A stretch of DNA of 64,000 nucleotides from Humidesulfovibrio sp. (lineage in GTDB: Bacteria > Desulfobacterota > Desulfovibrionia > Desulfovibrionales > Desulfovibrionaceae), in assembly GCF_031082295.1 (NCBI RefSeq), contig NZ_JAVHLD010000002.1, forward strand, positions 40,976 to 104,975, in the 5' to 3' direction. Made by a program: the position numbers and the translations under genes. Shown one piece after another: positions 3,210 through 42,453 of this stretch (within the stretch, counting starts at the first letter, position 1; the number at the start of each line of letters is the position of its first letter). Under the pieces are notes generated by a model. That model was not told where the DNA came from. It saw only the letters and a list, made by a program, of their open reading frames with translations, and made no database searches.

Positions 3210-3286
<77 letters not shown>

Positions 3287-3291
3287 TTTTC

Positions 3292-3317
3292 AGGCCGCCC
3301 CACAGGCGGCCTTTTTC
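3292..3317 (+). terminator. Intrinsic terminator after the tRNA
   Basis: AGGCCGCC-ccaca-GGCGGCCT stem followed by a T run. Confidence 0.75.
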
Positions 3318-3413
3318 ATGTCAAACCGGCGTGTTCAAGGCGGTCTCCGTGGCAGCCATTATCTCGGCGCTTCGCGCCCCTTCGCAGAACGACCTAATAT
3401 GACGGGAGGACTC

Positions 3414-3920
3414 ATGCGCGAGAGTATCATGATCGCTGTCTTGGCAATCTCTGTCTCAGCGTGCGCCTTCAAAGCGCCCAGCGCGGAAGCGGTCCTCAAA
3501 CCGACTCGAGGCAACACCGCCAGCGGCACCTTGAGTTTTGAGCAACAAGGCGGCAGCGTGTTCATCAAGGGTCAATTTGCAGGGCTCACCCCCGGAGCGC
3601 ACGGGTTCTCCATACACGCCAAGGGCGATTGCACCGCCGCGGATGCCTCCAGCGCCGGTGGGCACTTCAACCCTTTCGGCAAACGCCATGGCTCGCCCTC
3701 CATGCCGAACCACCACGCCGGGGATCTGCCCATGCTTGTGGCCGGGACCAACGGCAAGGCGCAGTTCCAGGCGCTCATGGACGGGATCAGCCTTGAGGAC
3801 AGCCCGAACGGAATTCTTGGGCGTAGCGTCATCATCCACGCCAAGCCAGACGACTTCACCACGCAACCAGGCGGAAACTCTGGGCCAAACGTTGCCTGTG
3901 GCGTCATCCAAGCGCGTTGA
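3414..3920 (+). CDS. Cu/Zn superoxide dismutase-family lipoprotein with degenerate active site
   Basis: Lipobox-like VSAC; GGHFNP, HG.P, HAGDLP, GRSVIIH and ACGVI motifs; GFHIH reads GFSIH and the catalytic Arg position is Asn; GGAGG RBS before ATG 3414. Confidence 0.85.
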   Translation: MRESIMIAVLAISVSACAFKAPSAEAVLKPTRGNTASGTLSFEQQGGSVFIKGQFAGLTPGAHGFSIHAKGDCTAADASSAGGHFNPFGKRHGSPSMPNHHAGDLPMLVAGTNGKAQFQALMDGISLEDSPNGILGRSVIIHAKPDDFTTQPGGNSGPNVACGVIQAR

Positions 3921-5791: not shown

Positions 5792-5807
5792 AGCAAATCA
5801 TGGACCA
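5792..5807 (-). promoter_or_regulatory. Candidate sigma54 (-24/-12) promoter of the MCP
   Basis: Minus strand TGGTCCATGATTTGCT: exact GG-N10-GC spacing and TTGCT, imperfect -24 box, about 40 nt upstream of the ATG. Confidence 0.4.
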
Positions 5808-5830
5808 TCGGTGCAGGGAAGATTATTATG

Positions 5831-5872
5831 TTGCAAGCGGTGTATCGTTCTTGCAAAATGATTCATGAATCA
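5831..5872 (+). promoter_or_regulatory. Candidate sigma70 promoter plus palindromic operator of the AsmA-CHAT operon
   Basis: TTGCAA-N17-CAAAAT (5831-5859); perfect palindrome TGATTCATGAATCA (5859-5872) over the predicted start site. Confidence 0.45.
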
Positions 5873-5927
5873 GGTTGGAAGCAAAACGCAGCCAGTCAAA
5901 ACCTGAGACGATACTTTTGGAGTCCAG

Positions 5928-8900
5928 ATGTCCGAGCAACGGCAAGACCAGCAAAGCTTCTTCCTCAAACGCAAGTGGTTGCGACGCCTGCTGTTTTGCC
6001 TTGCTGCAATTGCCGCACTTCTCGTTGCCGTCGTGCTTGCCATACCGGCCATGGTCAGTTCAGACTGGGCGCGGAACAAGGTGGAGCAGGCGCTCAGCGC
6101 CTCGACCGGCAAGGACGCGACCGTGCGTCAGCTCTCTTTCGGCTGGTCTGAGGGTCTGAACGTCGGTGGCCTGAATGTCGGGCAGGGCGGACTGGACGAT
6201 GAGGCTTTCCTGTGCTCGCTTGAGACCCTGAGTGTGAAGTTCGACTTTCTTAAAGCCCTGCGCAAGGATATGCACCTGACTGTGTCCGTCTCCGGCCTGC
6301 GCCTGCGCCAGATCGTTGAGCCCACACCCCCACACGCTGAACCCCAGCCAACTGAACTTCCCAAGCCCCTGCCGAAGCTGCTCAGGGACAGCCTTTCTGC
6401 GCTGCGCCAAGGCCTCAAGCCAAGCCCCAGGAGTGGTGATGCGCATATCCTGGTAGATGTTTCGGACATCGAGGCACGACTGATATTCGTCGCCGACAAC
6501 AGCACCCTCGACATCCGCGACGTGACCTTTCGCTTGAGTGTCCCCGGGCTCGCAAACGGCCCGGTACGACTCAATGCTGGTTTCAAGACGCTGCTTAATG
6601 GAAAGGAGCTGGCCCCGCTGAAGCTGGAGGCGCTGCTTGAGGGCCTCGTGGATGAAACCGGGCAGCTGAACCCGGCCCAAGCTCGCCTCAAGGCCAATGC
6701 CGAAGCGCCTGGCGTGGCTCTGCTGGCCCTGGGCAGCGTGGGCAAGGGCTTCAAGACCGACCTTCGCGTTGACTTGCGCAAACTTGCGCCCCTGCTGAAG
6801 CCCTTTGTCGGGTCAGCGCTCCCAGATGTCTCCGGTGCGCTGGCCATCGGGCTGACGGCTGCGCAACCAGACACGGACCATCTCAACCTTGGGCTTGTCG
6901 CTTTTGTTGATTCCTTGCGTGCCGCAGGCGGGCCGCTCGGTCCCAAGAGCGCTGGCCCTTTCGCCATGAACCTGCTGCAGGAGGCGAGCGTTGACCTCAA
7001 GACAGGCGCCATACAGCTGCCGGGCAAGCTTCGCCTGCTGAACAAAAGCACTGCAGACTGGCAGGGCGAGGTCACAGGCCTCAACGAAAGCCAACCCAAG
7101 CTGAACCTGAACGTCCACCCCATCCACCTGCAGCTCGACGAGTTGATGAACGCCGCACGCGCCTGGATTCCCCCCGGCATCAGCATTGCCGCCGCAACCC
7201 TGGACATTCAGAGCATGGTGCTCCAGGCCGCGTTGCCCACGAACGCCGGGGGCAAGCTCCAGGCACTAGCGTCCTTGAAAGACCTCAACCTTGAGGCCAA
7301 AAACGTTACCCGCACGTCCGGGCAAGAACGCCTGAGCATCGCACGTTCACAACTTGTCCTTGAGACCGCTCAGGTCGAACTGCCGGGCAAGGCTCCCGGG
7401 CAGCTTTCAGCCAAAGCGATGGTGACCGTTGAAGGCCTGCGCCAGCAGGGCAAGACGCCAGTGAGCGTGAAGCGCATGGCGCTGACGCACCTTGCCGCCA
7501 GGGTCGACGGTCTTGCCCAGGATTCGGCGGGATTGTTCGGCGTGCTTGGAGCTGCTGCCCTGGACATCACGGGAGAGGTCCAGGGCATCGACATCCCCAA
7601 AATGGCGCAGGTGCCCTCGCTGAAGCACACAGTTACCCTCCGCGCGGACCTGCCCGCCACGAAGTCCGCCACAGCCCGCCTTGAGGCACTGACTCTGGAC
7701 GCACCACGTCTGCGCGTGCTCCTGCCCGGCAAGCGCCCGGTCGATACTCCCCTTGCCCTGCATCTCAGCGTACCGGACATCAGCCTTTCCGATTCCTCGC
7801 CCATGGAGGTCGGCATCGCAGATGCCAAGCTGACCCTTGAGCTCGGGCAGGCCCTGCGTTTGCTGACCACTTCAAGCATGCAGGGAAAAGCGGTGCGCAG
7901 CTCCGGCACCATGACCTTGGACGTGCAACGCTTGCTGGCCTTGGCCACGCCACTGCTTCCGAGCAAGGCGCAAGGCTCGGGCGGTGTCGCGCTGGACTGG
8001 AAACTGTCCGCCGTCCTGCCGCAACCCCAGGGGCCGGTGCAGCAGCCGGTAAAACTCTCCAAGACCCTTGCGCGGCTTGATTTCCTGAAAGAGTTGGAAG
8101 CGGTGTTGACCCTTACCGACGTCAACCTGGACTGGCCCAAGGCAGGGACGGCCCAGGCCGGTGGCGGAAAGCCAGGCGACGTTCTGCGCTTGCGCTCGCT
8201 CAGCACCCCAAAGCCCCTGCGTGTGAACACTTCCGGTGGCCTGCGCGAGTCGAGCCTGCGTGGTTCACTGGCTTTTGGGCCGTTGGACGAACTCCCCGGA
8301 GTCGGGGCGTTGGCCAAGCCACTGCGCGGGCTCGTGACCGTCAACGCCGCGCAGCAAGGTCTTCGTTCGCTCCAACTCTCTGAGATTCTGCACACGGACG
8401 GCCTTGAACTTGACCAGAGCCTGAACATCGCCCTGGATCGCCTGGACCAGGTGCTGGACCGTGACAAAGACAGATTCGCCGCCATCCTGGAGCACGTGGA
8501 CGGCACCATCAGCTTCGCCGCCAAGACCGGACTGGCGACCCTGTCCGCCCAGGCGGGCAAGGCCCAGGCCGCACAGAAGCTCTCCGGCAAGGGCAACCTC
8601 GAGGCAGGATTCGACGCGAAGCTCTCCAGCGGCCGAAGCCTTGCCCTGTCCGCGCGCCTGCTGAGCCCCGGGCTTGACCTGAACCTTGGGCCGAACCTGG
8701 CCATTAGCGGCCTGACCAGTTCCCTGCGCCTGAACAAGCGCTATGCCCTCCAGCCCGGCCTGCGATGCGCCGGACCAAGCCACGAAGTGCTGCAGCCCCT
8801 TTCCGAGCAGGTCTTCGACCTGTTCCCGTCCTCCACCCCAAGCAGCAACTTTGCCGATGACGACAACGCAGTGGCGCACGCACGCCTAAGCGAGTTCCAG

Positions 8901-9635
8901 GCCGGTGGCGGGAGCCTCGGCTTCAGCCGCATGAAGCTCAAGTCCGGCTCGCTGCCGCTGGCTCTCCACGATGTCTTTCTGCGCCTGGACACCAGCGGCC
9001 CGCTCCCTGCCTTGCGCTCTTTTCGCGCGGGCCTGTTGGGCGGAAACATGCTGGGCAGCCTCCAGGTCAAGGGCGCTCGGGGCGACTACGCCCTGGCGGC
9101 CGACCTGAGCTTCACGGGCATCGATCCGTCACGGTTCTTCCCCGGCAAGGCCGCCAAGGACCTTGGCGACAAGGCCGAGACGGCAGGCCGCGTGAGCGTG
9201 ACCCTGCCCCTGACGCCCGACGCGGAAGCCCTGCTGCAACGCATCGGCCTGCGCGCGGACATCACCAAGATCGGCCCGCGCACCCTGGAGCGCATGCTCT
9301 ATGCGCTCGATCCCGACGAGCAGAACGAGACCATCGTGCAACAGCGCCGCCTCATGGACATCGGCTATCCGCGCTTCGTGAACCTGGGATTGGCGTACGG
9401 CAACCTGAGCCTGTCCGGCGCGGTGGAGGTCAAGGGTTTCCAGTTGGACCTGCCGCGCATCGACCGTTTGCCCGTCGGGAACCTCCCCATTGGCACACAA
9501 CTCAAAAAGGCACTGGCGCCCATGCCCAAGCTCATCAAGACCCTGGACGCAGTCTCGTCCAACAGCCTCTGCCGTGACCCAGCAGGGTCGCTCAAGGTTT
9601 CCGGCAACAACGATCAAGAAGGAGTCGCACCATGA
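5928..9635 (+). CDS. AsmA-superfamily (YdbH-type by context) inner-membrane-anchored periplasmic bridge protein, 1235 aa
   Basis: Single N-terminal TM, then AsmA-type pattern (KVEQALSASTGKDATVRQLSFGW...LSVKFDFLKAL) and long alternating-hydrophobic beta-strand sequence; followed by a DUF1318 gene as in ydbH-ynbE-ydbL. Confidence 0.7.
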   Translation: MSEQRQDQQSFFLKRKWLRRLLFCLAAIAALLVAVVLAIPAMVSSDWARNKVEQALSASTGKDATVRQLSFGWSEGLNVGGLNVGQGGLDDEAFLCSLETLSVKFDFLKALRKDMHLTVSVSGLRLRQIVEPTPPHAEPQPTELPKPLPKLLRDSLSALRQGLKPSPRSGDAHILVDVSDIEARLIFVADNSTLDIRDVTFRLSVPGLANGPVRLNAGFKTLLNGKELAPLKLEALLEGLVDETGQLNPAQARLKANAEAPGVALLALGSVGKGFKTDLRVDLRKLAPLLKPFVGSALPDVSGALAIGLTAAQPDTDHLNLGLVAFVDSLRAAGGPLGPKSAGPFAMNLLQEASVDLKTGAIQLPGKLRLLNKSTADWQGEVTGLNESQPKLNLNVHPIHLQLDELMNAARAWIPPGISIAAATLDIQSMVLQAALPTNAGGKLQALASLKDLNLEAKNVTRTSGQERLSIARSQLVLETAQVELPGKAPGQLSAKAMVTVEGLRQQGKTPVSVKRMALTHLAARVDGLAQDSAGLFGVLGAAALDITGEVQGIDIPKMAQVPSLKHTVTLRADLPATKSATARLEALTLDAPRLRVLLPGKRPVDTPLALHLSVPDISLSDSSPMEVGIADAKLTLELGQALRLLTTSSMQGKAVRSSGTMTLDVQRLLALATPLLPSKAQGSGGVALDWKLSAVLPQPQGPVQQPVKLSKTLARLDFLKELEAVLTLTDVNLDWPKAGTAQAGGGKPGDVLRLRSLSTPKPLRVNTSGGLRESSLRGSLAFGPLDELPGVGALAKPLRGLVTVNAAQQGLRSLQLSEILHTDGLELDQSLNIALDRLDQVLDRDKDRFAAILEHVDGTISFAAKTGLATLSAQAGKAQAAQKLSGKGNLEAGFDAKLSSGRSLALSARLLSPGLDLNLGPNLAISGLTSSLRLNKRYALQPGLRCAGPSHEVLQPLSEQVFDLFPSSTPSSNFADDDNAVAHARLSEFQAGGGSLGFSRMKLKSGSLPLALHDVFLRLDTSGPLPALRSFRAGLLGGNMLGSLQVKGARGDYALAADLSFTGIDPSRFFPGKAAKDLGDKAETAGRVSVTLPLTPDAEALLQRIGLRADITKIGPRTLERMLYALDPDEQNETIVQQRRLMDIGYPRFVNLGLAYGNLSLSGAVEVKGFQLDLPRIDRLPVGNLPIGTQLKKALAPMPKLIKTLDAVSSNSLCRDPAGSLKVSGNNDQEGVAP

Positions 9636-10225
9636 AACGATTGATCCTGACGACCTCCCTCGTGGCACTGGCCACCCTGTCCGGCTGCACCCTTGCCGAG
9701 GTCAAGGTCAACGTCGCCAGCGAACGAACCTCCCTTGAGAACCAGATCCTCGGCTCGTACAATTCCCTGTCCGAGGAGACGCTGCTCGTGGCCTCGGTGC
9801 GCGGAGTGGATCCACTCGGCCGCATCCAGACCCCGCCACGCAAGAGCCGGGAACAGCAGGACGCCATCACCGCCATGCAGGTCACAAGCTTCCATGCGGA
9901 CGACGTGGACGCCTTCAAGCGCCTGGGCTGGGTGGGCGAGGACAACAAGGGCCTGCTCACCGGCTTCCCGCTCACCAGGGACAACGCCCCGGACGACCTC
10001 AAGGATTTCGCCGCGCGCTACCAGCAGAATGAATTCAATGCGGTTCTGGCCGAGGTCAACCGCGCTCGCGACACCATCATGCGTCGGGCCATCGAGACCA
10101 ACGCCTCCCTCACCCAGGCCGACTTGCCCAAGGTGCGGGGCGTGTTCGCGAAGCTCAACGAAGACACGGCAAAACCCGGGGAGAAGGTGCAGACCCCTGA
10201 CGGCGCCTGGACGGTGAAGAAATGA
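9632..10225 (+). CDS. DUF1318/YdbL-family lipoprotein
   Basis: Lipobox LSGC; GWVGEDNKGLL motif, EVNRARDTIMR helix, PGEKVQTPDGAW end; ATGA overlaps on both sides. Confidence 0.75.
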   Translation: MKRLILTTSLVALATLSGCTLAEVKVNVASERTSLENQILGSYNSLSEETLLVASVRGVDPLGRIQTPPRKSREQQDAITAMQVTSFHADDVDAFKRLGWVGEDNKGLLTGFPLTRDNAPDDLKDFAARYQQNEFNAVLAEVNRARDTIMRRAIETNASLTQADLPKVRGVFAKLNEDTAKPGEKVQTPDGAWTVKK

Positions 10226-13200
10226 ACGCGCGACCCTTCCGACAACTTTACCGGCAGATTTTAGCGGGATCCTGCCTGGCGCTGGCCCTGCTGCCTTGGC
10301 CAGCCACGGCTGCCACCCCGAAGGCGACTCCGGCGGCTGTGCCCCAAACCCAGCTTGACCAGTCGGCCAAGGCACTGTCCGAAGAGGCATTGCGCGCCAC
10401 GGGGAAACGCCTTGCGCCGCGTCGCGTCGAGGTCAATCGCCCCGTGCAGGTCACGTTCGAGACCGGAGCCGTGCAGCATCTGGACATCACGCCTGATGGA
10501 AAGTGGCTGGCCTACACTCGCCAGAGCAACGGCTACAGCGAGCTTTGGGTGCGCGGCTTGGGTGACGGCCTCACCGGCCTGCCCAGACGACTGGCCCCGG
10601 CACTGGCCGACCGCCTTTCCCCTGCGCTTTCGCCCGACGGCCGACGTATCGCCTTCGTCGGCATGGAGGACGATGTCAAAGGCGACATCTACCTCCTTGA
10701 CCTGGCCAATCCCCAGGCTCAAGCACAAAAGCTGACGGGCCGCGCCACCGAGGACCGCTCGCCCTGCTTCAGACCGGACGGCAAGAGCCTGTACTTCCAA
10801 CAGCGCGACGAGGGCGAGCCAAAGCGTCGCATCGTTGCCCTGGAACTCGCCAACCTTTCGTCCGCCCCGCGCGCCCTCGACACTGACGGCGACGCCGCCC
10901 AGCCCACCCTTTCGCCTGATGGACGCCGGCTTGCCTTCGTCTCGGCGCGCACGGGCGTCAGCGCCGTGTACGTCATGAACCTGGCCTCCGGCGCAGCAGC
11001 CGGACTTCCGCAAAAGCTCACCACGGACGTCCTGCCCCAGGCCTATCCGCGCTTCACGCCCGATGGCATGACCGTGCTGTTCACCACCGCCCCGGTCTTT
11101 GGCGTGACTTCGGACCAGGGCGGCATCCAGACCGTCATCGCACGCGCACCAGTGCCAGCAGATGCCGGTCAAAGCAGCAAGCCTGAAGACCTGACCTCGG
11201 CCCAGGGGGCTGACCTTTCCCCGGTCATGGCCGCGGGCAGGCTGTTCTTCCTGGCCTCGCGCGCCCTTGGAAACACCATCCCGTCCAATGTGTTCAGCCT
11301 CCCGCCAGAGGGCGAGATACCAGACAAGTCCTCCGCGGAGCTGATGACACTCGCCGAAACGCTGGCCAGCCAGTTGCCCGTTGATCGGCACCTGACCATC
11401 CTGGCCTTGGGCAAGGCCGCGCGGACTTCAGGCTACCGCGGCGACATCGCCGCCAAGGCTCTCCTCGGAATGGGGCGGCAGTATGAAAGCCTCGGGCTTG
11501 AGACCCCTGCTCGGCAGGCTTTCGATGCCGCTTCGGCGCTTGATGTGCAGCCCGAGTCGGGCTTTGCCCACATCCGCAGCCTGCTCCTCGGCGTGGCCGA
11601 GGATACCCGCCAGGCTCTGAACGACAAGGGCAGGCGCGCGGCGTTGCAGGCGGGGCTGAAGGCCCTTTCGGGCATTGCCGCCAAGCCGGCCGATACCCCC
11701 GCGCAATCGCGCGTGCAGGCCCAGGCCCGCCTGGAACAGGCCCGGCTGCTGCAAAGCGCCGGGGACTCCAAGTCCATGGCCGAGGCCATCCGCCTCCTCG
11801 ATGCGCAACTCGCCGTGCGGGGCATCGCGCCGGAACAGGCTGCCGAGGCGCTCTTCCTCAAGGCCGAGACCTTTGGGCGCATCGGCCAGGTGCAGGCAGT
11901 GCTCCCCATCCATGCCCAGGTCATCCGCGACTACCCGGACAATGGCCCCTGGGCCGACATGGCCGTCTCGCGCGTGCTGGACCGCACCGTGGAGGCCGCC
12001 GGACCGAAACCTGAAGCCCAGGCCCAGGCCCTGCTTCTCTTGTCGGGCCAGCATCGCCTGGACCTGCCCAAGCTCTCACTCGGCGCTTTGAACCGGTTGG
12101 GGGATGTGTATTACGCCTCGGACGAATGGTCCAAGGCCAAGGACGCATACCGCCAGGCCCTGGACAATGCCAACGCATGGCAGAAGCAGTCTCCGCAGAA
12201 CGCCTCGCAGGTGGCCACGCAGGTTGCCGCCGCCCGGCTCGCCCTGGCGGAGATACTCTACCGCGAGGAACGCTTCCATCAGGCGCTTGATCTCTACGAG
12301 AGCGAAATGGCCTCGCGCCCCTTCGAGGACCGCCTGTACCGCCTGGCCAAGACAGCGCACCTGCGCAAGTCGACAGCGGCGGGCGACTATCTGCTGCGCA
12401 TCGGCGAGGTGCCCTCGGCCCGGGCGATCTTCGCCGGGCTCCTGCGTGACGACCCGGACTTCGTGCCCGCCCACAGGGGCATGATCCGCGCGGCGGCGGC
12501 GCTCAAGACCATCCCCGCCACCCTGGCGGAATACAGGCAGAAGCTGTCCGCCAAGCCGGACGACGCCACCCTGCTCTACGCCACGGGCCTCACCCTGACC
12601 TATGAGAACGGCAAGGCGCCGCTCCTTGAGGCGCGCGACCTCATCAGCCGGGCCATCCAGAAGAATGGCCAGGTGGAGTACTTCCACCAGACCCTGGGCT
12701 ACATCGACGAGGTGCTGGAGACGGTTCATGGTGAACGCGGGCGGCTGGAAGCGGCGCTGGAGTCCTATCAGCGCGCGCGTTTCCTCAACAGCCGCGAGCA
12801 GAACCCGGAAAACGCCGCCAACCTCGACATGAACATCGGCAACATCCACTTCCTGCTGGGCCAGTATGCCCAGGCCTTTGAGGAGTATGGCAAGCGCCAG
12901 GACTCCAAGGTGCCTTTCGACAACCCGGAAACCGAGATCCTGTTCTATCAGCGATTCGGCACTTCCGCCTTCCAGGCCCGCGAGCGCGACAAGCCAAGCC
13001 TCGCGTTTGCCAAGTCCCTGGAGCTTGTCGAGCAGCGCATCCAGCCAAAGTACGCCTCCGAGGTCTTTGGCCGTATCAACAAGTTCGTGTTCGACCGCGT
13101 GCTCACACTTGCCCTGGGCCACGCAGACTTGGCCGAGAAGGCCAAGACTCTGGCCACGCGCCAGTCCGAGCTGAACAACCGGCTCTTCGAGGCCAGCATC

Positions 13201-16200
13201 AAGCCCGCCGGACCGCCGCCTGACCCGGCCTTTGGCGTGTACGTCAAGGCAGTGCAGGAGCTCTTGTCCGAGCAGGAGCGGATCATCGGCGAGTTGCCGC
13301 CGCTGATGCAAAAGGACCGCGAGGCGTCCATGCAGACGCTCTTCGTCATGGCGGGAAAGGTGCGCGAGGCCCTGGGCTTTCCGCCCCGGTTCGTGCAACT
13401 GCGCGCGGAATTGTACGACCGCCTGGGGCTTGCGCATCAAGAGGCCGGTCGCTGGCACGAGGCCAGAGAGGCCTTTGAAAAGGCGCTCGTCATGAACACG
13501 TCCCTGGGCCTCAACCAGAACCTCACGGCCAACCAGCGATCCGTTGCCTACTGCGCGTACATGGAGGCGGGACTGACCACGGGCCTTGATCGCGACAAGC
13601 TGCTTGCTACCGCCGAAGCCGGCTTCCGCCGCATCCCGGAGTTGGTGAGCAAGTATGGCGTGGCCGACAAGAAGGGCGGCAGGGCCGGCAAGGGACTGAT
13701 CAACATCGACCTGGACGTGAGCCTGGACAAGTCCACGGCTTCCCAGGCCGCATACGGGTTCAGCGCCGAGCAGGAGCTGCGCCTGGCTGAGACGTTCCTG
13801 GCGCGCATCGCCACCGAGCGCGGCCGCCCGCGTGAAGCCCTCGGGCTGGTCGAACGCCAATCCACCGCCTTCGAGAAGGGCTCCGTCGCGCCACAGGACA
13901 CCTTTGGCGCGGCCCTGCTGCTGCACCGCGCCGGCATGCTGGAAGCCTCTCTCGGCAGCGAGCCGCAGGCCTTTGAGCGTTTCCGGCGCTCCGCAGAGCT
14001 GTCGCTGGAGATGAAGAATCCTGTCAGCGCCTCGCTGAACGTCATCGACATGGCCGCAACCCTGTTGCGGATGCCCTTTGATTCCAAGGAATTTGCGCTA
14101 CGCCTGAACGAACTGCGCCGTGTGGAGGCCCTCGTCGCCGAGGGCTTGCGGCATAAGCTGCCCGGTGGCGATTCCCTGTCCGCACCGGCCTTCCAGAACA
14201 TCATGGCCGCGCAAAACATGGCCCTGGCGGAGCGCCTGCCCGTCACCGACGCACTCAGCGCGGCACGGCGCATGGAACTGCTGGCACGCTCCGGCCAGCG
14301 GCTTGCCGAGGGCCTGTCCTGGTTCAAGAACAGCCTACCCGCTGGCAACCGCCGCGCACTTGCTCTCAACGCCGCCTTGCACCTGAACCAGGCCGAGCTT
14401 GCCTTGCGCCTGGGTGAAGACGACGTTCGCGCCGAGCAGCTGAACGCAGCCCTGGTCCTGGCCGATGAAGGCCTGCTGCCGGGCTTGCGTTGGCGCGCAT
14501 TGGCAGGCCTCGGGCGCCTCAAGGAAGCCCTTGGCGTCGTGCAGGCCCTGCCGCTGGACGAGGCCTCCTGCGGCGCTGGCGAGATCACCGGAGCTTTTGC
14601 GCCCCTGGTGGCAGCGCTGGTGGACGCCGGTAAGGCCGAAGACGCATACAACCTGACCGAGCGCCTGTCTGAACTGGAACGCGTGGGCCGCATGGGTCGG
14701 CTCGGCGTGGCGCAGCCAACCCAGGCAGAATCCCAGCTCTTGCGGCGCACCGCGCTGAGACTGCTGGCCATCCGCGACCTCAAAGCCCGTATTACAGCCA
14801 CCAAGGGCGATGACCGCGTCGACCTCTCGCGCCGGTTGAGCCAGGAGGAAGAGATCCTCCAGCGCGACCTTGGCCTGGACCGCGAGTCCCTTCCCGGCGT
14901 GGCCCGTCTGGGCAACAGCGTCGCCGAGCAGGACTGGCTGACCATCCTGCACGGCTTGTCGCTTGAGGCTTCGGCCGCTGCCGACTCCGCCGCGAGCGGC
15001 TCCGCCGAGCAGCGATCCCGTCACGCCCAGTTGATGACGCGTCTTGGCGCGCTCAAGGCCGAGGCCGGGAAATCCATCGGCAGGCTGGACGCGCCTGGAG
15101 CCTTGGGCCTGTATCTAGCCGCGCCGAGCGAGGCCATCGACCTCATGGAGAACCTGCCGAAGAACACCAGCACGCTACGCGTCGTTGCCCTGCCTTCGCC
15201 TCGCCGGGATGCGATGCGCTGGGTGGGCCTGCGCCTGGACGCCGATTCCGTTCGTTCCGTGGCCCTTGGCAGCGGCCCTCGCCCGACGCTTCCAGCCGTT
15301 GCTCCAGGGGAACAGCGCCTGCTGGCCTTCGAGGATCCGGGATTCATCGCATCGGATGACTTGCGCACGGCCCAAGCCGGAGCCTTGAGCGGCACGCATC
15401 TGGTTCGCTCGTTCAAAGCGCGCAAGCCCTTCCGCAAGAACCTGGTCTTCATCACCGGCTCGGCCCAGGCCGCATCAATCGGCTTCAAGGGCTTTGACAC
15501 AAAGTCCGTGGCATCTTCCGCCGCCGGCTTGCGGCAATCTCTGGCCCAGGCCCACACCGTGGTTGCGGAGACCCCAGCCCGCCTGTCGCAGTCTGCGCCC
15601 AGCCGTCAGGATGAGCTGCCGGTGCGATTCCTGGCGTTGACCCCGGCCAAGGGAGAGCCGCTGCCGCTGACCGGCCTGGCCACGGCCATGCAGGATGTCT
15701 CCCTTGCCGTGCTGACCCAGGTCCCTGCGGAGAGCCTGCCGCTTGTCGTGCATCTCCTGTCCCTCTACGGCGTGCCCTCGGTGCTGGCCGCACAGGAAGC
15801 GGACGCCAGCGGCAAGGGGTTCACCACCTCCTTCCTGACAGCCTACGCCGAGGATTCGGCGGCCAACGCCCGCGCCAAGGCGCATGCCTCGGGCAAGGAC
15901 ACCGCTTCCTGGCTGCTCCTGGGCGATCCGGGGCTAAACGTCGCTCAGGCCGGCGCCTTCGCCGCCACCCAGTTTGCCCGCTACGTGCGCTCCGGCATGG
16001 AAGACTTCAAGTCGGGACGCCATGCCCAGGCGTTGTCCCTGTTCGAAAACGCCCTGCGCGTAGCCCGGTCGTCGACCCAATTCAGCAAGCACTTGCCTGA
16101 CCTCTTGTCATACTGCCGCGAGAGCGCCTACGCCTCCGACCAGTTCGACAAGTCCCTGGCCTATGCCAAGGAGCTTGCGGCCCTGGTGGCCAAGTCCAGC

Positions 16201-18813
16201 CCGGACACCCCGGCCCACGCCGAGGCCTTGCTGCGGCTCGGCCTGGTCTACGCCAGGCTGGAGCAGTATTCCCAGGCCATCACGGCCGTGCAGCAATCGA
16301 CGGACATGCTCGCCAATCTCGAGTTGGCGCCAAAGGAGATCGAGGCCTTGGCGAGCCTTGGCGCGGTGCTTGAAAACGCCATCCAGTACGACAACGCGCT
16401 CAAGCGCTTCGAGGGTGCGGCCAAGCTGTCCAAAAAGACCGGCTCCAAGGAACTTGTTGCCAAACAGTACCTGAGCATCGGCCGCATTCACGACCTGCGG
16501 CTCTCGCAATACGCCCAGGCCCGCGAGGCCTACGGCGAGGCCCTCTCCATCTACACCAGTCTCGGCCGCAAGGCGGACATGGCCCAGGCCATGCTCGACA
16601 TAGGCCGCTGCGCGAGACTCATCGGCAACTTCACAGAGGCTGAGACCCGCTACGCCGAGGCCCTCAAGCTCATCGCCGCCGACAAAGCGCAGGAACGCCT
16701 GCGCGCGCGCATCCTCATCGAGCAGGCCAACAACGCCTGGCAGCAGGCGCGGTTCCAGCAGGCCTTCGACCTTCAGCGGCAGGTGCTCAAGTCCGCCGAG
16801 AAGAACGGCTGGGTACTTGAGCAGGTCATCGCCCGCAACACCGCCGGACTCCTGTGGTGGAGCCTGGGCGACCACAACCGCGCCGTGCGAGAGCTTGACG
16901 CGGCCCTGCCCCTGGCCCAGTCCCTGCGCATCCGCAAGGACGAGGTCGCCACCACCCTGAACAACCGTGGCTTGGTCGAACGCGACATGGGCCGCTACCC
17001 GCTGGCGCTCAAGACCCTGGGCGAGGCACTCGCCATTGACCGCGAGATACGCTCGCGCTGGGCCATCGCCTACGACCTGCGCAACATCGCCCAAACTTAC
17101 GTGCGCATGGGCGACCCGAGGAAAGCGCTGCCGCTGCTGGACGAGGCGCTCGCCATCGTCTCGGCCACAGGAAACCGCATCAACCAGACCAAGATCCTGC
17201 TGGCCCAGGGCGAGGCGCTGCTTGCCCTTGGCAACGACGACAAGGCCAAGGCCGCCTTTACGCAGGCCGATGGATTGTCCCGCGAAATGGGGCTGCGAGA
17301 CAGCCAGTGGCGCGCGCTGCACGGGCTCGCACGGCTGGACATTGCCGCGGGCAAGCGCCAGGAGGCCAAGGACCTGCTGCAAAAGGCCGTCGATGTCATC
17401 GAGGGCATGCGCGCCGAGCTCAAGGTGGACCAGCTGAAGGACGGCTTCATCGCCGACAAGGCCGTGGTCTACGAGGACCTGGTGACGCTGCTGGCCGATA
17501 TGGGCGAGGTGGCCGAGAGCTTCCGCACGGCAGAACGCTCCCGCGCCCGCAACCTCATCGACCTCCTGGGCAACAAGCGCAGAAGCCCACAACACAAGGA
17601 AGACCAGGCGCTCTACGAGCGCATTAACGCCGTGCGCTCGGCCCTGCGAGAGCAGGAATCGCTGCTGGCCCAAGCACAGGGCAAGAACGAGCGGGAGGTT
17701 TACGCCAAGGGCGTGAAGCGCCTGCAGGACGACTACCGCGACATCCTGCTGGAACTCCAGGCCAACCGGCCGGACATCGCCAGCCTTGTCAGCGTCAATC
17801 CGCTCACCCTGGCCGACGTGCAGAGGATGCTCGAACCCGGCGTGGCGCTTTTGACCTACTACGTCACCGCCAACGAAATCCTCTGCTGGACCGTGGACCG
17901 CGACCGCGTGGAACTGACGCGCACGCGCCTGGGCCGCGACACCCTTGGCCAGATGATCCTGACCTATCGACGCATGCTGCAGAATCTGGAGCCTGTGGAG
18001 GCACACTCGAAGGAACTCCATGCGCTGCTGCTCGCCCCTGTGTTGCCGAAGCTCAACGGCGTGAAGGTTCTCGGCATCATCCCCCACGACAGCCTGCACA
18101 CCCTGGCCTTCGCCACGCTCTCTGACGGCGATTCGAACCTGCTGGACCGCTACCCATTGTTCCAGCTGCCCAGCGCCAGCGTGTTCAAGTTCACGCTGGA
18201 ACGGCGCAAGGCCGAGCGCAACACCAAGGTGCTCGCCGTCGGCAACCCGGACCTGCACGACCAGTCGCTAGAGTTGCCGTTCGCCGAGCGCGAGGTGGGC
18301 TCGCTGGCCTGGAACTACCCGAACATGACAGCATTGACGCGCGAGAAGGCCACCAAGAGCTGGATATCCGAGCACATCAGCGACTTCGGCATCATCCACC
18401 TGGCCACCCACGGCGAGTTCGACCCCGTGAACCCGCTGTTCTCGGCACTCAAGCTGGTGAGCGACAAGAAGGACAAGGACGGCGACCTGGACGCCGCTGA
18501 AATCTTCGACCTGAAGATCTCGGCGGACCTGATCGTGCTCTCGGCCTGCCAGACGGGTCTCGGCAAGGTCACCAGCGGCGACGAGGTTCAAGGCCTGAAC
18601 CAGGCCTTCCTGTATGCCGGTACCCACGCGCTGGTATCGAGCCTGTGGCGGGTGAGCGACATCTCCACTGCCATGCTGATGAAGCAGTTCTATCGCGAGT
18701 ACCAGTCACGCCCGAAGGCCGAAAGCCTGCGTCGGGCCATGCTGCACGTGAAGAACCGTTTCCCGCACCCGGGCTATTGGGGCGCGTTCACCTTGAGCGG
18801 CGACTACAAGTAA
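10222..18813 (+). CDS. Giant exported TolB/PD40-propeller, TPR and CHAT (caspase-like) protease, 2863 aa
   Basis: Sec signal (..LALLPWPATA|A); repeated P..SPDG+.+AF blades (about aa 75-360); long TPR arrays; degenerate CHAT at about aa 1640-1904; C-terminal CHAT with IIHLATHG (H2730), VLSACQTG (C2776) and HP.YWGAFTLSGD. Confidence 0.92.
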   Translation: MNARPFRQLYRQILAGSCLALALLPWPATAATPKATPAAVPQTQLDQSAKALSEEALRATGKRLAPRRVEVNRPVQVTFETGAVQHLDITPDGKWLAYTRQSNGYSELWVRGLGDGLTGLPRRLAPALADRLSPALSPDGRRIAFVGMEDDVKGDIYLLDLANPQAQAQKLTGRATEDRSPCFRPDGKSLYFQQRDEGEPKRRIVALELANLSSAPRALDTDGDAAQPTLSPDGRRLAFVSARTGVSAVYVMNLASGAAAGLPQKLTTDVLPQAYPRFTPDGMTVLFTTAPVFGVTSDQGGIQTVIARAPVPADAGQSSKPEDLTSAQGADLSPVMAAGRLFFLASRALGNTIPSNVFSLPPEGEIPDKSSAELMTLAETLASQLPVDRHLTILALGKAARTSGYRGDIAAKALLGMGRQYESLGLETPARQAFDAASALDVQPESGFAHIRSLLLGVAEDTRQALNDKGRRAALQAGLKALSGIAAKPADTPAQSRVQAQARLEQARLLQSAGDSKSMAEAIRLLDAQLAVRGIAPEQAAEALFLKAETFGRIGQVQAVLPIHAQVIRDYPDNGPWADMAVSRVLDRTVEAAGPKPEAQAQALLLLSGQHRLDLPKLSLGALNRLGDVYYASDEWSKAKDAYRQALDNANAWQKQSPQNASQVATQVAAARLALAEILYREERFHQALDLYESEMASRPFEDRLYRLAKTAHLRKSTAAGDYLLRIGEVPSARAIFAGLLRDDPDFVPAHRGMIRAAAALKTIPATLAEYRQKLSAKPDDATLLYATGLTLTYENGKAPLLEARDLISRAIQKNGQVEYFHQTLGYIDEVLETVHGERGRLEAALESYQRARFLNSREQNPENAANLDMNIGNIHFLLGQYAQAFEEYGKRQDSKVPFDNPETEILFYQRFGTSAFQARERDKPSLAFAKSLELVEQRIQPKYASEVFGRINKFVFDRVLTLALGHADLAEKAKTLATRQSELNNRLFEASIKPAGPPPDPAFGVYVKAVQELLSEQERIIGELPPLMQKDREASMQTLFVMAGKVREALGFPPRFVQLRAELYDRLGLAHQEAGRWHEAREAFEKALVMNTSLGLNQNLTANQRSVAYCAYMEAGLTTGLDRDKLLATAEAGFRRIPELVSKYGVADKKGGRAGKGLINIDLDVSLDKSTASQAAYGFSAEQELRLAETFLARIATERGRPREALGLVERQSTAFEKGSVAPQDTFGAALLLHRAGMLEASLGSEPQAFERFRRSAELSLEMKNPVSASLNVIDMAATLLRMPFDSKEFALRLNELRRVEALVAEGLRHKLPGGDSLSAPAFQNIMAAQNMALAERLPVTDALSAARRMELLARSGQRLAEGLSWFKNSLPAGNRRALALNAALHLNQAELALRLGEDDVRAEQLNAALVLADEGLLPGLRWRALAGLGRLKEALGVVQALPLDEASCGAGEITGAFAPLVAALVDAGKAEDAYNLTERLSELERVGRMGRLGVAQPTQAESQLLRRTALRLLAIRDLKARITATKGDDRVDLSRRLSQEEEILQRDLGLDRESLPGVARLGNSVAEQDWLTILHGLSLEASAAADSAASGSAEQRSRHAQLMTRLGALKAEAGKSIGRLDAPGALGLYLAAPSEAIDLMENLPKNTSTLRVVALPSPRRDAMRWVGLRLDADSVRSVALGSGPRPTLPAVAPGEQRLLAFEDPGFIASDDLRTAQAGALSGTHLVRSFKARKPFRKNLVFITGSAQAASIGFKGFDTKSVASSAAGLRQSLAQAHTVVAETPARLSQSAPSRQDELPVRFLALTPAKGEPLPLTGLATAMQDVSLAVLTQVPAESLPLVVHLLSLYGVPSVLAAQEADASGKGFTTSFLTAYAEDSAANARAKAHASGKDTASWLLLGDPGLNVAQAGAFAATQFARYVRSGMEDFKSGRHAQALSLFENALRVARSSTQFSKHLPDLLSYCRESAYASDQFDKSLAYAKELAALVAKSSPDTPAHAEALLRLGLVYARLEQYSQAITAVQQSTDMLANLELAPKEIEALASLGAVLENAIQYDNALKRFEGAAKLSKKTGSKELVAKQYLSIGRIHDLRLSQYAQAREAYGEALSIYTSLGRKADMAQAMLDIGRCARLIGNFTEAETRYAEALKLIAADKAQERLRARILIEQANNAWQQARFQQAFDLQRQVLKSAEKNGWVLEQVIARNTAGLLWWSLGDHNRAVRELDAALPLAQSLRIRKDEVATTLNNRGLVERDMGRYPLALKTLGEALAIDREIRSRWAIAYDLRNIAQTYVRMGDPRKALPLLDEALAIVSATGNRINQTKILLAQGEALLALGNDDKAKAAFTQADGLSREMGLRDSQWRALHGLARLDIAAGKRQEAKDLLQKAVDVIEGMRAELKVDQLKDGFIADKAVVYEDLVTLLADMGEVAESFRTAERSRARNLIDLLGNKRRSPQHKEDQALYERINAVRSALREQESLLAQAQGKNEREVYAKGVKRLQDDYRDILLELQANRPDIASLVSVNPLTLADVQRMLEPGVALLTYYVTANEILCWTVDRDRVELTRTRLGRDTLGQMILTYRRMLQNLEPVEAHSKELHALLLAPVLPKLNGVKVLGIIPHDSLHTLAFATLSDGDSNLLDRYPLFQLPSASVFKFTLERRKAERNTKVLAVGNPDLHDQSLELPFAEREVGSLAWNYPNMTALTREKATKSWISEHISDFGIIHLATHGEFDPVNPLFSALKLVSDKKDKDGDLDAAEIFDLKISADLIVLSACQTGLGKVTSGDEVQGLNQAFLYAGTHALVSSLWRVSDISTAMLMKQFYREYQSRPKAESLRRAMLHVKNRFPHPGYWGAFTLSGDYK

Positions 18814-18832
18814 CTTGAGGAATATAGCTGAC

Positions 18833-20077
18833 ATGCGTGCAAGACTCTGCTCAACATGGCTGATGGCGATCTGTCTGCTTGCTTTGTCTGCCGGGCAGGT
18901 TCTGGCCGCGCAGGCTGGGGGGGCCGTCCTGTGGACCGCCTCGGACAGGACGCCGCTCAGATCGGATCGCTCCGGCGTGGCCGCGACGCTCAAGGACTTG
19001 CCGCGCGGTACTCCCGTGCGACAGTTGCAAAACGAGGGCGCCTGGCTGCTCGTGGAAGAACCGGGCGGCGTCAAGGGCTGGGCCTACCAGGGACATCTGG
19101 AGGCCTCGCGGCCTTTGCCCACCAGTGTCGACCTCTTTGCGCCGCTGCCTGGCAGCATCGTGCTGGCCGAGACAGCGGACACAAGCCGCAGCTCGCGCTC
19201 TGTCCAGCCGGAGCGCAACAAGGACAATGAGGCCTTGTGGTCTGTTCTGGAGCTGCCGCTTTCCCGTCAGAACCTGGAGGACTTCCTGCGCGAAGGGGGC
19301 ATCGGAGAGTACTCGCAGGCGACGCCGCACAGCAACGGCGGCCCACTCAAGCTCCCTGCGCTCAAACCAGCAGCCCCGCCGGGCGGAGACGCCGAGCGCC
19401 TTCTCGGGCTGAACCTTGCCGTCACGGTGACGCGCAAGGTGGCCAAGCCGGCCTTCGGTACGCAGTTGCAACGCTATGTCAATCTGGTGGGTTTGAGCGT
19501 GGCGCGTTTCGCACCCGGCAACGCCCTGAGCTATCGTTTCATCGTACTGGACAGCCCTGCGCCGATGTCCTTGAGCCTGCCTGGAGGCTTTGTCATGATC
19601 AGCACGGGCCTCGTCAAGTCGCTGGACAACGAGGCCCAGTTGGCGCTGGTGCTGGCGCACGAGGCTGCGCACGCCTCTCTCGCCCATGGCTGGGCCAGGG
19701 CCAAGGCGACGCAGTTCTTCCGCTCAGGCCTTGGCATGACCGATGATGGCGTGAAATCGCCGTTGTTCGGGCAGATGCAGGACGAGTTGCTGAAGCAGTT
19801 GTTGCGCCACGGCACGGACCAGAAGCAGGAATATGACGCAGACGCCGCAGCCGTGCAGATGGCCTATCGCGCCGGCTACGACCCCATGCAATTGATCGCC
19901 GCGCTCCATAACGTGGACCGCGCGTCGGACGGCGCCGTGCTGAGTTCTAGCGCCAGATGGAGCGACCTGCACCCGCCTTTACAGATGCGCATGAACAGAA
20001 TCCAGGCGCTTTTGGCGCGGTTGCCCATGCAGGACGGACTGGCGCTGGCAACGCAACGTTTCCAGGCCAACATCTAG
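18833..20077 (+). CDS. Exported SH3b domain plus M48-family zinc metalloprotease
   Basis: Signal peptide; SH3b (LPRGTPVRQLQNEGAWLLVEEPGGVKGW); M48 motifs SLPGGFVMISTGL, LAHEAAH, QEYDAD, HPP; GAGG RBS before ATG 18833. Confidence 0.85.
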   Translation: MRARLCSTWLMAICLLALSAGQVLAAQAGGAVLWTASDRTPLRSDRSGVAATLKDLPRGTPVRQLQNEGAWLLVEEPGGVKGWAYQGHLEASRPLPTSVDLFAPLPGSIVLAETADTSRSSRSVQPERNKDNEALWSVLELPLSRQNLEDFLREGGIGEYSQATPHSNGGPLKLPALKPAAPPGGDAERLLGLNLAVTVTRKVAKPAFGTQLQRYVNLVGLSVARFAPGNALSYRFIVLDSPAPMSLSLPGGFVMISTGLVKSLDNEAQLALVLAHEAAHASLAHGWARAKATQFFRSGLGMTDDGVKSPLFGQMQDELLKQLLRHGTDQKQEYDADAAAVQMAYRAGYDPMQLIAALHNVDRASDGAVLSSSARWSDLHPPLQMRMNRIQALLARLPMQDGLALATQRFQANI

Positions 20078-20086
20078 GCCAAGCAG

Positions 20087-20674
20087 CTAGAACTTCATGT
20101 TCTTGGCGTCCTCGATGGCCTTGAGCGCATCGGGCGGGATGTCCTTTTCAGTGGCCGGGCCGCTGGAAGGATAATCCTTGTTGCCGATGCGAACCGTGCC
20201 GCCCTTGTTGACGACCGTGCCGACGCTGGATTTGATCTTTCCCTTTTCAACGCCCTCGGCGGCCTCGCGCTTCAAGGCCTCCTTCTCGGCCTGGGCCTCG
20301 GCCTTGGCGGCGGCCTTGAGGGCTTCCTTCTCCGCCTTGAGCTGAGCCTTCAGCGCCTGCTTCTCGCGCTCGCGCTCGGCCTTGGCGGCGGCTTTGGCGG
20401 CGGCCTTTTCGGTGTCGGCGGCCGGATCGTGCGGAACCAGGGCCACCTTGCCGTCGCGGATGATCACGTCCATGCCGGGCTTGTACTTTTGCTCCTGCAG
20501 GACACCGTCCAAGTAGATTTTGTCACCCTCGATGACCACGCTGTTCACACTGCCCTTGCCGGTTTTCCAGTCGCCCACCACCACGTTGGTCACGTCGTCC
20601 GCCGCAATGGCGGACACGCCTGAGGCCAACAACAGGGCTAAGGCAACCAGAATGCTTCGAAACTTGCGGTGCAT
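20087..20674 (-). CDS. Hypothetical secreted protein with Ala/Lys/Glu-rich coiled-coil
   Basis: AAGGAGG RBS, Sec signal (..SAIA|A), beta-rich N-terminal part, repeated AEKEALK, host-like codon usage. Confidence 0.75.
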   Translation of the reverse strand: MHRKFRSILVALALLLASGVSAIAADDVTNVVVGDWKTGKGSVNSVVIEGDKIYLDGVLQEQKYKPGMDVIIRDGKVALVPHDPAADTEKAAAKAAAKAEREREKQALKAQLKAEKEALKAAAKAEAQAEKEALKREAAEGVEKGKIKSSVGTVVNKGGTVRIGNKDYPSSGPATEKDIPPDALKAIEDAKNMKF

Positions 20675-42401: not shown

Positions 42402-42453
42402 CTCAACGCTTTCCAATACAGTCTGGCGAATACCCCCCCAACGGAGGCCAGAC

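Follow-up and report, generated by a model that had tools for sequence, protein, structure and literature searches.

The window analyzed here is a 64,000-nucleotide stretch of Humidesulfovibrio sp. DNA (assembly GCF_031082295.1, contig NZ_JAVHLD010000002.1, positions 40,976 to 104,975, forward strand). It contains a four-gene operon whose third gene encodes a giant protein that combines a predicted signal peptide, a beta-propeller, long tetratricopeptide repeat (TPR) scaffolds and two caspase-like CHAT domains, one of them predicted to be catalytically dead. The segment 10222-11310, described in the initial annotation as part of a caspase-like CHAT protein of about 310 kDa, corresponds to residues 1-363 of a single open reading frame (ORF), 10222-18813 on the plus strand. 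This ORF encodes 2,863 residues with a mass of 312 kDa (309 kDa after the predicted signal cleavage), and the CHAT assignment is supported by a Pfam match with an E-value of 3e-61. The order of the operon genes is AsmA-like protein, DUF1318 lipoprotein, giant PD40-TPR-CHAT protein and SH3/M48 protease. The genes and the parts of the giant protein are as follows.

5928 to 9635, plus strand: AsmA-like protein, 1,235 residues, with one N-terminal transmembrane anchor (hydropathy peak, orthologue matches)
9632 to 10225, plus strand: DUF1318 lipoprotein, 197 residues, with lipobox LSGC at 9677-9688 (Cys19) and DUF1318 domain at residues 89-196 (9896-10219)
10222 to 10311, plus strand: predicted Sec-type signal peptide of the giant protein, residues 1-30, cleavage predicted between ATA and A
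10444 to 11301, plus strand: six-bladed PD40/TolB-type beta-propeller, residues ~75-360 (Pfam PD40, AlphaFold2, Foldseek)
11314 to 15165, plus strand: long helical/TPR scaffold 1, residues ~365-1648 (TPR_2 and TPR_10, for example at residues 1062-1091)
15166 to 15924, plus strand: predicted pseudo-CHAT domain, residues ~1649-1901 (profile-profile comparison, AlphaFold2, Foldseek)
15925 to 18006, plus strand: TPR scaffold 2, residues ~1902-2595 (TPR_12, TPR_1, TPR_8, TPR_7 and TPR_16 at residues 2050-2400)
18007 to 18804, plus strand: predicted active CHAT protease domain, residues 2596-2861 (Pfam CHAT)
18409 to 18411 and 18547 to 18549, plus strand: putative catalytic His2730 and Cys2776 (dyad conservation)
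18833 to 20077, plus strand: predicted exported SH3-M48 metalloprotease, 414 residues (Pfam Peptidase_M48, HEAAH, signal peptide), with signal at 18833-18910, SH3 at ~18947-19099, M48 at ~19469-20008 and HEAAH at 19658-19672

The giant protein thus runs from signal and propeller through a helical/TPR scaffold of ~1,280 residues to the pseudo-CHAT domain, and then through ~690 residues of TPR to the active CHAT domain. A Pfam scan detected PD40 at the N-terminus, many TPR families in mid-chain and a full-length CHAT domain at 2596-2861; NCBIfam gave partial, sub-threshold matches only, to TolB and to the CHAT part of Csx29. The start codon of the gene is well constrained. The reading frame is closed by a stop at 10198, past which the ATG at 10222 is the first start, and no other follows in frame until a GTG at codon 40. 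The ATG shares the sequence ATGA with the end of the upstream DUF1318 gene (stop codon TGA), and the N-terminus reads MNA(R/H/P) in all close orthologues. We consider the start to be fixed by the upstream stop, the overlap and the conserved MNA- N-termini. When we checked whether translation might really begin past the hydrophobic segment, there was no alternative start before codon 40, with the ATGA coupling and the MNA- N-termini maintained.

The N-terminus has the form expected of a Sec substrate processed by signal peptidase I, i.e., a basic n-region, an h-region of 7-15 residues and small residues at -3 and -1. In the giant protein the n-region is MNARPFRQLYRQ, with a net charge of +3, the h-region is ILAGSCLALALLPW, of ~14 residues and containing Gly and Pro, and the c-region is PATA followed by A, an AxA site with small residues at -3/-1. 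There is no twin-arginine motif in the N-terminus. Cys18 was considered and rejected as a lipidation site, because the hydrophobic core runs on beyond it and a basic residue lies too near upstream. By a fixed heuristic, 106 of 120 homologues (29-81% identity to the giant protein) have signal-like N-termini, compared with 3% of 6,000 windows taken at random from inside the proteins and 2.8% of internal windows that start with Met. Among these 120 homologues the N-terminal sequence itself varies and the n/h/c pattern is conserved. Some relatives carry a lipobox in place of the signal peptidase I site, with N-termini such as ...LLAC, ...FVSC and ...LAGC, followed by S, A and M, respectively. Exchange of one export signal for another would be senseless in a cytoplasmic protein, and the family is therefore likely to be exported; by the same motif some relatives would be lipid-anchored rather than soluble. 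No segment after the signal looks like a transmembrane helix. The highest 19-residue Kyte-Doolittle means, 1.76 at residue 1839 and 1.63 at residue 2602, both fall in the cores of folded CHAT-type domains. The signal described in the initial annotation and the lack of a later transmembrane segment are both upheld, the former by N-terminal form and conservation in homologues, the latter by a post-signal maximum of 1.76. The extracytoplasmic location proposed there is strongly supported, in comparative terms, by the conserved signal, the lipobox-bearing relatives and the three envelope-type operon partners, and the giant protein is very probably periplasmic.

Two other placements of the protein were weighed. 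A cytoplasmic protein, with a wrongly annotated start or a fortuitous hydrophobic stretch, would account for the few database homologues that begin at the propeller without any signal (P0021, P0058, P0063 and P0111); these entries begin exactly at the propeller, however, and look like truncated gene calls. Given the lack of another start before codon 40, the conserved ATGA coupling and MNA- N-termini, and the signal-like N-termini in 88% of the family compared with 3% of controls, we regard a cytoplasmic location as extremely unlikely. It is also formally conceivable that the N-terminus is an uncleaved signal-anchor tethering the protein to the inner membrane, or that the protein travels on to the surface or the medium. 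Cleavage is a prediction from sequence, and the lipobox relatives indicate that tethering is compatible with function; against this, the h-region is short, with Gly and Pro among its ~14 residues, and leads into ATA before A, and the operon encodes no secretion-system genes. Retention as an anchor or onward secretion is accordingly improbable.

The C-terminal CHAT domain matches PF12770 with 207.7 bits against a cut-off of 24, over profile positions 4-289 of 289. At least 95% of 95 full-length homologues retain His2730, in an ATHG motif, and Cys2776, in LSACQTG; both residues align with the dyad regions of Csx29 and DdvA, the only two significant chains in a sequence search of the PDB with the CHAT domain (E-values of 2.6e-4 and 1.5e-3, respectively). 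In the alignment of the 95 full-length sequences CHAT is the most conserved region, which, together with retention of the dyad, argues that the protease is under selection as an enzyme. There are eight cysteines in the 2,863 residues of the giant protein, one in the signal peptide and one being the catalytic Cys2776. Scaffold 1 also holds family-conserved residues, for example H751-R752-G753.

The least conserved part of the giant protein, residues ~1550-1900, conceals a second CHAT-type domain. The region has no Pfam match even at an E-value of 10, and BLASTP against the C-terminal CHAT domain detects nothing. Profile-profile comparison (hhalign) with the family's own CHAT profile nevertheless gave a probability of 93% and an E-value of 2.8e-7. 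An AlphaFold2 model of the domain has a predicted local distance difference test (pLDDT) score of 88.6 and a predicted template modelling (pTM) score of 0.86, and the best Foldseek match of this model is the Csx29 TPR-CHAT (E-value 1e-4), followed by separase (5U1S, E-value 6e-3) and metacaspases. The His of the dyad is replaced by Glu or Thr and the Cys by Val or Gln. When the profile of this region was run against 1.84 billion representative proteins, the family itself was recovered first, in 65 clusters at an E-value of 1e-30 or better, and ordinary TPR-CHAT proteins followed at lower scores, matched in their genuine C-terminal CHAT domains. By profile comparison and structure modelling, residues ~1649-1901 are thus a predicted second, catalytically dead CHAT domain. 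The giant protein is probably a functional protease with a regulatory pseudo-domain, as judged from its sequence.

CHAT proteases have been known chiefly as switches in the cytoplasm, as exemplified by Craspase, the gasdermin activators, HetF and separase. DdvA is, to our knowledge, the sole characterized periplasmic CHAT example, and it is a membrane-bound anti-sigma factor. In the initial annotation the best-studied CHAT proteases were taken to be cytoplasmic, a premise that is incomplete in view of the periplasmic TPR-CHAT of DdvA (PMC11506125). The DdvA domain, from Myxococcus xanthus, has been solved by cryo-electron microscopy (PMC11506125; PDB 8ROT/8RW5). An extracytoplasmic CHAT domain is therefore not unprecedented. 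DdvA and the giant protein share a periplasmic TPR-CHAT arrangement with a canonical His/Cys dyad and CHAT domains that are similar in sequence. DdvA, however, is a single-pass membrane anti-sigma factor of 991 residues with a cytoplasmic zinc domain and an extracytoplasmic function (ECF) sigma partner, whereas the giant protein has a cleavable-type signal, no transmembrane helix, a propeller, a pseudo-CHAT domain, three times the size and an operon of envelope proteins. None of the DdvA-type traits (zinc anti-sigma domain, transmembrane helix, ECF sigma gene) is found at the locus of the giant gene.

Csx29 of Craspase is the best match in sequence and fold for both CHAT domains and has the same order of TPR followed by CHAT, but it is a cytoplasmic protein of ~700 residues bound to Cas7-11. 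The NCBIfam Csx29 model matches the giant protein only partially (2e-13, 50 bits against a cut-off of 300), and there are no CRISPR or cas genes, including Cas7-11/gRAMP, in the neighborhood. Separase offers a parallel in architecture, i.e., a huge helical-repeat scaffold, a pseudo-protease domain and then an active caspase-like domain. It differs in being a nuclear or cytoplasmic protein of eukaryotes under the control of securin, and its two domains are adjacent, whereas those of the giant protein are separated by ~690 TPR residues.

The partners of the giant protein are of the envelope type. The AsmA-like protein has a predicted transmembrane anchor at residues ~17-43 (5976-6056), with a 19-residue Kyte-Doolittle peak of 3.18 at residue 21 (21-39), and no other transmembrane-like segment in its 1,235 residues, so that the rest is predicted to be periplasmic. 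It aligns end to end (E-value 3e-68) with the orthologue at locus L003, which carries AsmA, DUF748 and YhdP matches; across 26 family members that can be aligned end to end, DUF748 is detected in 16, AsmA in 14 and YhdP in 12. The stop codon of the AsmA-like gene overlaps the DUF1318 start as ATGA, as the DUF1318 stop overlaps the start of the giant gene, so the first three genes are joined by such overlaps. The lipoprotein matches Pfam DUF1318 (PF07027) with an E-value of 1e-7 and 32.8 bits (cut-off 27). It shares 51% identity with the L003 orthologue and has no significant match to the PDB by sequence. All 59 DUF1318 orthologues have the lipobox Cys, and the mature N-terminus, C-TLAxVxVxVxSERTxLENQxLG (window 9689-9760), is almost invariant.

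The M48 gene follows the giant gene by 19 nt and has a Shine-Dalgarno sequence, GAGGAA, 9 nt ahead of its ATG at 18833. Its product matches Peptidase_M48 with an E-value of 5e-19 (69.4 bits against a cut-off of 20.3), has weak SH3_3 and SH3_4 matches, an HEAAH motif at residue 276 and the N-terminus MRARLCSTWLMAICLLALSAGQVLAA, with Q as the predicted first residue of the mature protein. With its HEXXH motif and signal peptide it is reminiscent of the E. coli envelope M48 proteases of the BepA/LoiP/YcaL type. SH3 and M48 are fused in one protein of 414 residues in the window (18833-20077) and at other Desulfovibrionales-type loci (L008-L021), and are two adjacent genes in the Geobacterales and Desulfobacterales (compare L002 18379-19779 and L003 16806-18278). 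Elsewhere in the window, the ORF 42346-43578 has a weak match (E-value 9e-6) to the cassette M48 profile and may encode another M48-family peptidase.

A scan for homologues of the giant protein, with one genome per species, gave 74 loci, which are mostly from the Desulfobacterota, the closest being from Desulfocurvus (69% identity), with others from the Deferrisomatales, Nitrospinota, Myxococcales and Acidobacteriota. Cassette genes were counted with hidden Markov models built from the cassette proteins and run against all locus ORFs, using only loci with enough flanking sequence. A DUF1318 gene lies directly upstream of the giant gene on the same strand at 53 of 70 species-representative loci, an AsmA-like gene upstream on the same strand at 48 of 65, and an M48 gene downstream on the same strand at 29 of 48. 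The DUF1318 lipoprotein, named in the initial annotation as a candidate partner, is thus encoded by the gene with the tightest linkage to the giant gene. The cassette loci span the Desulfovibrionales, Desulfobacterales, Geobacterales and Deferrisomatales, and the overlap of the DUF1318 stop with the start of the giant gene is maintained across orders. The order AsmA-like, DUF1318, giant, SH3 and M48 is seen in Geoanaerobacter pelophilus and a Desulfosarcina genome, and the genes are reordered in a metagenome contig. The 4-nt overlap and the gene order fixed across orders argue for stoichiometric coproduction of the proteins. The family is rare, amounting to ~65 clusters at 50% identity among the 1.84 billion representative proteins. 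On sequence evidence, it is a rare and phylogenetically confined family of predicted exported PD40-TPR-pseudoCHAT-TPR-CHAT proteases encoded in a conserved envelope cassette. In Desulfonema magnum, where the giant gene is without a cassette, the neighboring anaerobic ribonucleotide reductase NrdD (L001 1-6199) is interrupted by intein and LAGLIDADG homing-endonuclease domains.

The operon is flanked by a methyl-accepting chemotaxis protein gene and by relA/spoT, both on the opposite strand, and has two candidate regulatory elements at its ends.

5801 to 5829, plus strand: sigma-70-like promoter match ahead of the unit's first gene, whose position fits and whose match count is not above chance
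20132 to 20144, plus strand: terminator-like hairpin just past the last gene, supported by position only, with a count not above chance

The only defense-system match at the locus by PADLOC was to a generic TPR model, and we therefore rejected the locus as a known anti-phage defense system. With its chemotaxis and relA/spoT flanks and the generic PADLOC result, the operon is a self-contained chromosomal unit and not a mobile or defense island. These observations bear on the idea that the giant protein senses danger or phage in the periplasm and passes the signal on by proteolysis, a role proposed for the TPR-CHAT of DdvA, or else is an effector of abortive infection. DdvA does demonstrate that a periplasmic TPR-CHAT can be a signaling module, and CHAT domains are common in defense systems. 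The giant protein, however, has neither a transmembrane helix nor an anti-sigma domain, there is no neighboring ECF sigma gene, there are no defense genes nearby, the flanks are of the housekeeping type, and the operon partners are of the envelope-biogenesis type. A role in danger sensing or abortive infection is therefore very unlikely. DNA near-identical to window 5800-20200 is found in wastewater, groundwater, sediment and drinking-water metagenomes (runs X1-X20), which points to an environmental Desulfocurvus/Humidesulfovibrio-like bacterium as its source.

The propeller was confirmed as the TolB-like, roughly six-bladed PD40 structure foreseen in the initial annotation. Pfam PD40 matches with an E-value of 3.8e-27 in five stretches, and an AlphaFold2 model of residues 1-410, from a 22-sequence alignment (pLDDT 86, pTM 0.81), has six four-stranded blades at residues ~75-360, followed by helices from residue 371. 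The (S/T)PDG motif is present in the five blades already listed from the sequence, and the sixth blade is divergent and without PDG. In Foldseek against the PDB the top 17 matches are TolB (E-values of 4e-16 to 4e-14, 21-23% identity), several of them TolB-Pal complexes, and S9-peptidase propellers come next. The top matches and the six blades make the description as a TolB-like propeller correct for the fold. As a true TolB the protein was rejected, since the NCBIfam equivalog (TIGR02800) reaches 86.8 bits against a cut-off of 343.15, over profile positions 199-385 of 418 and residues 90-290, and the N-terminal alpha/beta domain through which TolB binds TolA is absent. The giant gene also lies outside any tol-pal cluster, and none of its neighbors encodes a Pal/OmpA-like protein. 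Among the precomputed Pfam matches of the homologues are Tricorn_N and Tricorn_2nd. The propellers of tricorn and S9 peptidases adjoin the catalytic domain and gate it, whereas that of the giant protein lies at the far end of the chain from a protease of another clan.

The initial annotation proposed that the propeller acts in the periplasm as a sensor or gate, for example by binding a lipoprotein in the way that TolB does Pal; the CHAT protease would thus be turned on or off. The match in fold and blade number to TolB, including Pal-bound structures, is consistent with this, as are the translational coupling of a lipoprotein gene to the giant gene in most species and the allosteric regulation that is typical of CHAT/caspase proteases (PMC11506125). 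The propeller is, however, ~2,200 residues from the active site, the pseudo-CHAT domain is a more obvious regulator, and conserved propeller residues are mostly structural PD40 positions. Furthermore, the TolB equivalog threshold is missed and the TolB N-terminal domain is lacking, and the coupled lipoprotein is a DUF1318 protein rather than OmpA-like as Pal is. We consider gating by the propeller to be possible but rather unlikely. Another way to put a TolB-type propeller outside the membrane would be that of the Acidobacteriota loci L079 and L080 (~9000-11125), the weakest propeller matches and not members of the family, where a PD40 propeller follows a transmembrane helix and the upstream sequence resembles the C-terminal part of a protein kinase.

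The lipoprotein could also be no more than a membrane tether for the giant protein. This predicts that giants with their own lipobox would be those without a DUF1318 partner, and there is no such correlation. All of the lipobox-bearing giants (L028, L037, L042, L050, L068, L069 and L078) have a DUF1318 partner, and most giants without the partner have signal peptidase I-type signals. The tether explanation was consequently rejected.

The AsmA-like/DUF1318 pairing recalls a system of E. coli. There, the AsmA-like YdbH and the lipoprotein YnbE bridge the inner and outer membranes, and YdbL, a DUF1318 protein of the same operon, modulates YnbE multimerization (PMC11126948). YdbL is degraded by DegP in vitro and is protected by YnbE, which has been proposed to control YdbL levels (PMC13464000). 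Both operons combine an inner-membrane-anchored AsmA-like protein, a DUF1318 protein and a lipoprotein. In the present cassette a single protein, twice the length of YdbL, is both the DUF1318 protein and the lipoprotein, and the E. coli operon, unlike this one, contains no protease genes. There is no separate small YnbE-type lipoprotein gene between the operon genes. By analogy with YnbE, the alternating residues of the mature DUF1318 N-terminus suggest a beta-strand that could extend a putative groove of the AsmA-like protein. No paper in the library that was searched connects CHAT with AsmA-like proteins or with DUF1318; a preprint on diversity-generating retroelements in which CHAT and the periplasm are mentioned proved irrelevant.

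From these components we propose that the giant protein would be a Sec-exported periplasmic caspase-type cysteine protease, the core enzyme of its conserved envelope operon. Its propeller and TPR solenoids would dock periplasmic partners, the likeliest being the DUF1318 lipoprotein and the AsmA-like bridge protein. The pseudo-CHAT domain would regulate or complete the active CHAT domain, for which there are precedents in separase, with its pseudo-protease domain, and in caspase dimers, with their partner subunit. On a cue, the CHAT domain would specifically cut one component of the AsmA-like/DUF1318 system, and the M48 metalloprotease would degrade the product. The net role would be that of a dedicated proteolytic device for the assembly, turnover or quality control of an intermembrane lipid-transport bridge. 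We assign this combined account, comprising export, protease activity and action on an envelope system, a probability of about 0.5. That the giant protein acts on or with the AsmA-like/DUF1318 pair in particular is a tentative conclusion, to which we give slightly less than even odds. A more detailed version, in which the protease, docked by its propeller and TPR repeats, cleaves a bridge component site-specifically and thereby licenses, dismantles or quality-controls the bridge while SH3-M48 clears the fragments, is doubtful. Similarly speculative is the extension of it in which the DUF1318 lipoprotein would cap the AsmA-like bridge and the cassette would constitute an unrecognized regulatory layer of envelope lipid transport.

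Several observations weigh against the combined account. The link between the giant protein and the AsmA-like/DUF1318 pair rests on guilt by association. Orthology of the AsmA-like family with YdbH was rejected (hhalign probability of 1.5%), as was orthology of the lipoprotein with YnbE, to which it has no similarity, and only the short C-terminal DUF1318 motif of the lipoprotein matches YdbL. With YdbH and YnbE unmatched and YdbL matched in one motif only, this is therefore an analogous AsmA-like/DUF1318 pairing and not the same system. The window's own AsmA-like protein has no Pfam match. The signal call depends on our own heuristic and on family conservation. No RNA run contains the locus, and evidence of transcription is negligible, being represented by one metatranscriptome contig of 197 nt, exact at 17595-17790, and otherwise by spurious 20-nt matches. 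No DUF1318 gene precedes the giant gene in 17 of the 70 species, Desulfonema magnum and Myxococcales among them, and adjacency is therefore not obligatory. A free catalytic thiol in the periplasm is a further concern; the family is found mostly in anaerobes, and it is plausible that this would suit such a thiol.

The species without an adjacent DUF1318 gene also bear on another explanation, that the giant protein is a general periplasmic quality-control or scaffolding machine, like BepA or DegP, and that its linkage to the AsmA-like gene reflects shared envelope regulation. The combination of TPR, protease and an M48 partner does recall BepA, to which there is a partial NCBIfam match. The 4-nt overlap and the gene order fixed across orders favor stoichiometric coproduction instead, and CHAT and caspase enzymes, of clan CD, are usually site-specific cutters rather than bulk degraders. 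We therefore think a general quality-control machine unlikely, and prefer the account in which the giant protein acts specifically on the neighboring envelope system.

Upstream of the operon the window contains further envelope genes, at 220-735, ~975-1904 and 3225-3920. They encode an LspA-like lipoprotein signal peptidase, a coiled-coil and TPR_6/YfiO-like lipoprotein that resembles CpoB/YbgF in a profile scan, and a Cu/Zn superoxide dismutase-like ORF; the first and last of these we take to be LspA and periplasmic SodC from inspection of the translations by eye.

What was already known is that a TPR-CHAT protein can be periplasmic, as in DdvA; what is new is the cassette with AsmA-like, DUF1318 and M48 partners, and the pseudo-CHAT domain. 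The AsmA-like gene, the SH3-M48 protease and the pseudo-CHAT domain had escaped the initial annotation. The giant protein would carry CHAT chemistry into the cell envelope in the form of a soluble, exported TPR-CHAT protein of ~310 kDa with its own pseudo-protease. Members of the family are encoded by cultured hosts, among them Humidesulfovibrio idahonensis, Geoanaerobacter pelophilus, strain NaphS2 and Salidesulfovibrio brasiliensis. Even if the link to the AsmA-like/DUF1318 pair were only regulatory, this would still be a rare and well-defined protein family with an architecture that can now be annotated. Work on outer-membrane biogenesis has yet to explain how AsmA-like bridges are put together, controlled and taken down, and the operon provides candidate regulators of that process. 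If the proposed mechanism is true, it would represent caspase-type proteolytic control of an intermembrane lipid-transfer machine.

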